A DNA stretch of 64,000 bases from Escherichia coli O127:H6 str. E2348/69 (GTDB lineage: Bacteria; Pseudomonadota; Gammaproteobacteria; Enterobacterales; Enterobacteriaceae): assembly GCF_000026545.1 (NCBI RefSeq), contig NC_011601.1; one strand, given 5' to 3'. Shown here piece after piece: positions 46,706 to 47,117 of this stretch (positions are counted from its first letter, which is position 1; each line of letters opens with the position of its first letter). The translations under genes were made by a program, and so were the position numbers. Below the pieces are notes generated by a model that saw only the letters and a program-made list of their open reading frames with translations, did no database searches and was not told where the DNA came from.

Positions 46706-46918
46706 ATGTCTAATAAAATGACTGGTTTAGTAAAATGGTTTAACGCAGATAAAGGTTTTGGCTTTATCACTCCTGATGATGGCAGCAAAGACGTTTTCGT
46801 CCATTTCACCGCCATCCAGAGCAATGAATTCCGCACGCTGAACGAAAATCAGAAAGTTGAATTTTCTATTGAGCAGGGGCAACGTGGTCCCGCGGCAGCG
46901 AACGTTGTTACGCTCTAA
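46706..46918 (+). CDS. cspG: cold-shock protein CspG
   Basis: 70-aa [27 protein letters not shown] with RNP motifs; long 5' UTR upstream. Confidence 0.9.
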
Positions 46919-46925
46919 GGTTGCC

Positions 46926-47117
46926 GTTATTACTCAACATCTCCATTTCCGCTGTCCATGTTGCCATGGTTCACAGTACCGCACATCGGCATTCGATGTG
47001 ACGGAGCGAAATCCTTTAGGAGCAAAGTGCATTTTTTGTAAATCGACGATGATCACCTTTGATAACGTCGCGCTGCAAATACGCACTGACCATGCGCCGC
47101 TGGATTTCACAAAATAA
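46926..47117 (+). CDS. small zinc-ribbon protein (ymcF-like); start codon uncertain
   Basis: C-terminal part of ORF 46857..47117 has CPCCHG...CIFC motif; the N-terminal part overlaps cspG so the true start is probably internal. Confidence 0.3.
   Translation, partial: VITQHLHFRCPCCHGSQYRTSAFDVTERNPLGAKCIFCKSTMITFDNVALQIRTDHAPLDFTK

Follow-up and report, generated by a model that had tools for sequence, protein, structure and literature searches.

ymcF of Escherichia coli E2348/69, a small four-cysteine zinc-ribbon-type gene with an ATT start codon next to cspG

The DNA analyzed here is a stretch of 64,000 nucleotides (the window) from contig NC_011601.1 of Escherichia coli O127:H6 str. E2348/69, and the subject is a small open reading frame (ORF) that begins inside the 3' end of the cold shock gene cspG. 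The ORF delimited mechanically spans 46857..47117 on the plus strand, starts with TTG and encodes 86 amino acids (aa); its last 62 codons alone constitute the gene ymcF. The first cistron of the locus, cspG, occupies 46706..46918 (+; 70 aa, WP_000066490.1, cold shock protein CspG) and is preceded by a promoter-proximal 5' untranslated region (5'UTR) that forms a cspA-type thermoregulator leader (46550..46705, +, Rfam RF01766). The TAA stop codon of cspG overlaps the Shine-Dalgarno (SD) sequence TAAGG of ymcF (46916..46921, +), and the ymcF coding sequence (CDS) follows at 46929..47117 (+) with an ATT start codon at 46929..46931, a TAA stop codon at 47115..47117 and a product of 62 aa. It contains two CxxC motifs, predicted to form a first (C9-P-C-C12, 46953..46964, +) and a second metal knuckle (C34-I-F-C37, 47028..47039, +). 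An intrinsic terminator assigned to the cspG-ymcF transcript, with a 7-bp GC-rich stem, a 5-nucleotide (nt) loop and a T-run, lies at 47122..47146 (+).

A 901-nt query covering 46600..47500 was 100% identical to the E2348/69 record, in which RefSeq annotates 46929..47117 as ymcF (WP_071524879.1, "cold shock small protein YmcF"). In E. coli K-12 MG1655, b4723 (YP_009518761.1) is found at the same locus and encodes a protein identical to the 62-aa product. The placement between cspG and ymcE/gnsA, the ATT start and the 10-nt gap are shared by both strains; the start region reads ATT ATT in K-12 and GTT ATT here, with no other difference of substance. The Pfam model PF23641 (YmcF-like) matched residues 1-62 on profile positions 1-62 with 166.4 bits (gathering score 27, E=1.6e-49), and 5393 of 5426 complete E. 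coli genomes carried the ymcF locus. We therefore consider it very probable that the ORF is the known and already annotated ymcF, encoding a 62-residue four-cysteine protein of the zinc-ribbon type from a rare ATT start codon 10 nt past cspG. The gene itself is not new and the finding is, in this respect, an ordinary one.

A preliminary description made from the DNA letters had recorded the 86-codon frame with its TTG start and the strings CPCCHG (46953..46970) and CIFC (47028..47039), all of which were recovered, the frame in the ORF list. Its proposal of a small protein of roughly 62 aa equivalent to K-12 ymcF agrees with the RefSeq and K-12 annotations (189 nt, 62 aa, 46929..47117), the K-12 gene encoding the same protein in the same place from an ATT start. 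The described overlap with cspG in another frame exists, but it comprises 62 nt or about 21 of the 86 codons, which is nearer one quarter than the N-terminal third that had been given. Similarly, an internal non-ATG start had been placed near 46926; the start is indeed non-ATG, but GTT at 46926 is no start codon and ATT at 46929 is the one used. The cysteine pairs, whose lack of conservation across enterobacteria had been named as a reason to discard the gene, are conserved. In this case, the cysteine pattern alone sufficed to recover a genuine small gene whose start codon is non-canonical, which makes the locus useful as a positive control.

The window was translated in all six frames and its stop-free stretches of 50 aa or more were screened for CxxC...CxxC patterns, of which seven were counted. 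An 86-codon ORF with this pattern is hence not beyond chance, and the case for a gene must rest on other evidence; homology and selection are what mark this CxxC ORF as real. Among 5.8 billion protein clusters searched, 137 clusters at 90% identity were matched, all with PF23641; the named matches among them all belonged to Enterobacteriaceae or their phages, except the partial P0033, which is labelled Aeromonas hydrophila. A genome scan yielded 170 loci, of which 80 were kept and 77 were used for the start-codon, selection and tree analyses. Across the 77 ORFs, dN/dS (the ratio of nonsynonymous to synonymous substitution rates) was 0.08 for codons 2-45 (the core) and approximately 0.6 for codons 46-62 (the tail), and the entropies of the three codon positions were 0.39, 0.24, and 1.21, the third position exceeding the other two 3-5-fold. 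The ymcF core is under strong purifying selection.

A profile search against 1.84 billion representatives returned 41 matches that were only family members or fragments, and nothing outside the family was found. NCBIfam NF047912 (ECs_2282 family putative zinc-binding protein) was considered and rejected (17.4 bits, cutoff 37). Scans with PHROGs and PADLOC yielded no meaningful match, a search of the PDB sequences returned no significant match and no solved structure for any relative, and no further ymcF copy was found within the 64-kb window.

The codon homologous to position 46929 was compared at the 77 loci, which include other Enterobacteriaceae. It was ATT at 37, ATC at three and ATG at 33 loci; the remaining four carry an ATG one to three codons off the homologous position. 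At approximately 15 of the ATT loci, the stretch from the closest in-frame stop upstream to the conserved core is free of ATG, GTG and TTG codons, and in the paralogous ynfQ gene of K-12 a TAG lies seven codons upstream, leaving ATT as the sole available start. The ymcF SD sequence TAAGG is located 7 nt ahead of ATT with the cspG stop codon embedded in it. In the alignment of the 20 csp-adjacent loci (A3), T[AG]AGG is fixed and is followed by eight variable nt and a fixed ATT or ATC. Together, these comparative data support ATT 46929 as the likely start codon of ymcF. D'Lima et al. are said to have observed cold induction of the YmcF protein and to have mapped the ATT start experimentally in 2017.

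The type of start codon was closely associated with the gene upstream. Among the 77 loci, those with ATT or ATC starts had an intact csp gene ending 10 nt upstream in 36 cases and no csp in three; those with ATG starts had no csp in 37 cases and a csp in one. The single ATG gene with a csp (L017) follows a degenerate copy in which the RNA-binding motifs are damaged (W11E, HF -> PS). The stop-to-start gap of 10 nt also separates cspI from ynfQ in K-12 and the corresponding genes in phage Tritos. The ATT/ATC start in combination with csp adjacency suggests translational coupling. AUU is a rare initiation codon in E. coli that is also used by infC and pcnB, and in infC it serves the autoregulation of initiation factor 3 (IF3). 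The AUU of ymcF is common to these genes; it differs from that of infC in that it lies 10 nt past the stop codon of an upstream cistron and correlates with the presence of that cistron. We have not placed this link between start codon and csp adjacency in the literature, and it may be new.

As a tentative reading, to which we give somewhat less than even weight, AUU could be an evolved coupling device, and csp-ymcF a functional unit of RNA chaperone and zinc-ribbon protein that is spread by lambdoid phages as a cold-adaptation cassette. The AUU codon would then be used mainly by ribosomes that had just terminated on cspG, by coupling or re-initiation, and YmcF would be produced in small amounts and in step with CspG at low temperature. 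Loss of csp would select for AUG, which would keep ymcF expressed. More speculatively, a conserved basic/aromatic face of the protein (Y17, R18, K33, F36, K38) might bind RNA, the ribosome or a protein partner, and such binding might take place in cold acclimation alongside the Csp RNA chaperone.

Several points weigh against the coupling proposal. Fisher's test for start type versus csp adjacency gave p=3e-17 but ignores phylogeny, and the neighbor-joining (NJ) tree, which requires about 6-7 changes for each of the two traits, was built on only 138 nt. L049, L074 and L079 have ATT without a csp gene, and L085 has ATC with a stop three codons upstream and no csp. RNAalifold on the 20 csp-adjacent loci identified no conserved pair at the cspG-ymcF junction. 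For the gene as a whole, no phenotype, partner or biochemical activity of YmcF was found in the literature covered, which did not include the primary experimental paper. An RNA hairpin in the cspG end that hides the ymcF SD sequence was tried as a candidate and rejected; one is seen in the single-sequence fold, but its z-score is -0.5 and it is unconserved.

Some of these points bear on a different explanation, in which ATT is a self-sufficient start, either IF3-sensitive or limiting for expression, as at infC and pcnB, and the csp association would reflect phylogenetic inertia. In its favor are the ATT/ATC starts of the stand-alone genes L049, L074, L079 and L085, the SD sequences (AAGGA/AGAGAG) that these genes possess of their own, and the finding that no conserved hairpin sequesters the ymcF start. 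However, the two traits change about 6-7 times on the NJ tree and almost always together, three structurally distinct kinds of csp loss (fusion to the leader, a csp 3' remnant and other contexts) all come with ATG, and the 10-nt spacing is constant from the chromosome through the phages. On balance, we regard a self-sufficient ATT start as possible but less likely than not. The near-perfect link between ATT and csp offers a cheap testable hypothesis on how rare start codons are maintained in operons.

The kinds of csp loss can be illustrated by individual genera. Stand-alone ATG genes of Klebsiella and Raoultella still have a visible remnant of the csp 3' end upstream. In Enterobacter, Leclercia and Lelliottia, the ATG-initiated ymcF is joined directly to a promoter and leader of the cspG type, and direct alignment identified the leader blocks TGCGTTAAT, GGTTTGA, AAAGCAGTTCTCAT and GAAAGGCCC upstream of these stand-alone genes. 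The Rfam cspA thermoregulator model gave no match upstream of stand-alone ymcF at E<=0.01, though the direct alignment shows a homologous leader. The leader-ymcF fusion is a naturally occurring example of a cold-shock leader that precedes a gene other than csp. A cspG-like promoter with a long 5'UTR fused to ymcF was seen approximately 250 nt upstream in L073, L070, L057, L072, L069 and L083. In L036, L049, L053 and L076, too, the blocks TGCGTTAAT and GGTTTGA are found, at 180-300 nt upstream of ymcF. Both kinds of ymcF coexist in Citrobacter braakii ATCC 51113, on one contig and about 3.5 kb apart (L015 and L081); one copy has ATT 10 nt past an intact csp, and the other is a stand-alone ATG gene with a csp 3' remnant.

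The Rfam model RF01766 (cspA thermoregulator) matched 46550..46972 with 156 bits (gathering threshold (GA), 78). The model comprises 428 positions, and the alignment here extends from the leader across the entire csp CDS and past its end. Downstream, the terminator (hairpin 47122..47140 plus T-run) begins 4 nt past the ymcF stop codon, and its stem is conserved across Escherichia species. With the leader and cspG upstream and the terminator downstream, ymcF is therefore the second cistron of a cspG-ymcF cold-shock mRNA of about 600 nt. Published transcriptomes, in which ymcF co-varies with cspG (PMC10920338, PMC11728337), fit this position of ymcF on the cspG mRNA. At the prophage locus, cspI, ynfQ and ynfN were co-induced 6.5-, 5.9-, and 5.8-fold, respectively (PMC11228462). 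By the cis evidence of a cspA-type leader and co-transcription with cspG, ymcF thus appears to be linked to the cold-shock response. In the Weaver 2019 preprint, ymcF is not mentioned. The gene is core in E. coli and, besides this link, is under strong purifying selection.

The YmcF protein consists of a conserved core of approximately 45 residues followed by a poorly conserved tail of approximately 17 residues. C9 and C12 are invariant in alignments A1, A4 and A5; for C37, conservation is complete in A4 and A5 and at least 90% in A1, and C34 is conserved to at least 90%; the rare exceptions in this second knuckle resemble frameshifted entries. In close homologues, CPCCHG...CIFC offers six possible ligands, of which the most divergent members keep only four. 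C11 and H13 are freely replaced in divergent family members and the four other cysteines are kept; therefore, the site is described by CxxC-21-CxxC. Further conserved residues are Q16, Y17, R18, S20, D23, N28, P29, G31, A32, K33, I35, F36, K38 and M41.

With 58 close sequences, the AlphaFold2 (AF2) model reached a predicted local distance difference test (pLDDT) score of 57.7, which was too poor for use. With 77 sequences including divergent members, a mean pLDDT of 75.9 was obtained, with residues 11-40 above 90 and a disordered tail. In a Foldseek search with this model, the top matches were all zinc ribbons; the closest, those of TFIIE-alpha and TFIIB (e.g. PDB 1vd4, 1pft), resembled the core of the YmcF model only weakly, and none was significant. 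The zinc ribbon proposed in the preliminary description is accordingly borne out as far as the motif and a moderately confident model go, the structural matches are not significant, and the metal site is a predicted one. We infer that a single Zn2+ is coordinated by the four cysteines, in a small zinc ribbon similar in type to those of TFIIE-alpha/TFIIB.

Instead of structural zinc, the segment CPCCHGSQY could hold iron, either in an iron-sulfur site resembling Rieske box II or in a rubredoxin-type site. A PDB sequence profile search gave motif-level matches to the Rieske box II CPCHGSQY (E 0.05-0.1), and a 2026 review modelled the paralogue YnfQ with a rubredoxin-like topology and Fe2+ (PMC13348028). 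Yet the motif residues C11 and H13 are replaced by many different residues in divergent members, Rieske box I (CxHxGC) is absent and there is no second conserved His. A Rieske-type [2Fe-2S] cluster was excluded, as the protein has no more than a box-II-like string, in which His13 and Cys11 vary within the family, and box I is missing. Rubredoxin and zinc-ribbon knuckles are indistinguishable by sequence, so that sequence alone cannot settle the choice between Fe and Zn; taken as a whole, we consider an iron site improbable.

That the product is instead the 86-residue protein translated from TTG 46857, in the frame that overlaps the end of cspG, is very improbable: the frame is open from 46857 here and in other Escherichia, with GTG and TTG codons within the extension, but the extension is not conserved, being cut by in-frame stops 3-9 codons ahead of the start in Citrobacter, Kosakonia, Klebsiella, Siccibacter and others and seven codons ahead of it in K-12 ynfQ, the first position of the Pfam model coincides with the first residue of the 62-aa form, and in one third of the species this very codon is ATG, preceded by an SD sequence 7-8 nt upstream. 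That the extension is open in Escherichia is explained by the cspG codons that it overlaps, which constrain it. As a conserved product, the 86-aa TTG form was ruled out by the in-frame stops in many genera and in ynfQ.

A region homologous to the small RNA (sRNA) STnc220 is located at the 3' end of the ymcF mRNA (47075..47155, +), where RF02077 scored 34 bits, below its GA of 60. In the Salmonella loci L013 and L024 (3147..3226), the same model scored 102 bits and covers the last ~40 nt of the ymcF ORF and the terminator; what counts as an 'sRNA' in Salmonella is therefore the 3'-terminal part of the csp-ymcF mRNA, which could persist either as a 3'-derived sRNA or simply as a stable fragment. 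A reading in which there is no protein at all, with only a cspG 3'UTR or an STnc220-like 3'-derived sRNA and a fortuitous ORF, could draw on this Salmonella match and its weak counterpart here, and on the non-canonical start, with which gene finders often miss ymcF and several phage records leave it unannotated, but it is hardly credible in view of the protein-coding signature (dN/dS of 0.08 and the third-position excess), the family-wide invariance of the cysteines, the ATG and strong SD sequence of stand-alone copies, and the restriction of STnc220 to the last ~40 nt of the ORF and the terminator. Given this restriction, an sRNA would be an added role of the locus and not an alternative to the protein.

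The paralogue YnfQ (b4724) is encoded in the Qin prophage of K-12. It has 62 aa, is approximately 69% identical to YmcF (P0015, the YnfQ-type E. coli cluster) and shows the same cysteine pattern. As at ymcF, its ATT start lies 10 nt past a csp gene (cspI), and small ORFs and a gns gene follow. It differs by its prophage/phage site directly after the lysis cassette, by another tail sequence and by its neighbors, ynfR/ynfN in place of ymcE. Copies of YnfQ are found in the lambdoid phages Tritos, mEp460, 2H10 and HannyBb, and the csp-ymcF-small ORF-gns module is carried in nine phage records in all. In the Qin prophage (L003, K-12 1636500..1641000), the duplicate module reads cspI-ynfQ-ynfR-ynfN-gnsB. 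In phage Tritos (L084), a module of csp, ymcF-like gene, small ORFs and gns lies directly after the lysis cassette. The csp-ymcF-small ORF-gns module behaves as a phage-borne accessory cassette, and the chromosomal set cspG-ymcF-ymcE-gnsA is an instance of it outside any prophage. The name YnfQ has been used for another protein, a hydrophobic one of 37 aa at K-12 1632890 (VanOrsdel 2018). The coordinate 1632890 is now ynfT, the first gene in the Qin prophage list, and VanOrsdel's YnfQ has apparently been renamed.

Downstream of ymcF, the neighboring gene ymcE (47092..47322, +) shares its first 26 nt with the end of ymcF and includes the terminator; its codons 1 to ~20 read through the cspG-ymcF terminator (47122..47146). 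The ymcE ATG is changed to AGG in one E. coli strain, in E. albertii and in Escherichia sp. E1V33. At four of six Escherichia loci the ymcE frame is broken by stops or frameshifts, and the flanking gnsA is 93-100% identical. From such comparisons, and although Pfam and NCBIfam models exist for it, it seems doubtful that ymcE is a conserved protein-coding gene. The last gene of the csp-ymcF-x-gns module is gnsA (47312..47485, +, PF08178), which is found in the same order in the Qin prophage and in Tritos.

Two further differences between the window and K-12 were noted. The minus-strand gene torS (from ~48679) is a frameshifted pseudogene in the E2348/69 RefSeq annotation and is intact in K-12. 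In K-12, the insertion sequence (IS) IS1D lies between gfcA and cspH, and no IS is present there in E2348/69 (~45800..46200). Among the loci scanned, the csp-ymcF locus on a contig labelled 'Chryseobacterium sp. 18061' (L066) was near-identical to that of Citrobacter sp. 18056 (L063); the L066 assembly is probably contaminated or mislabelled.
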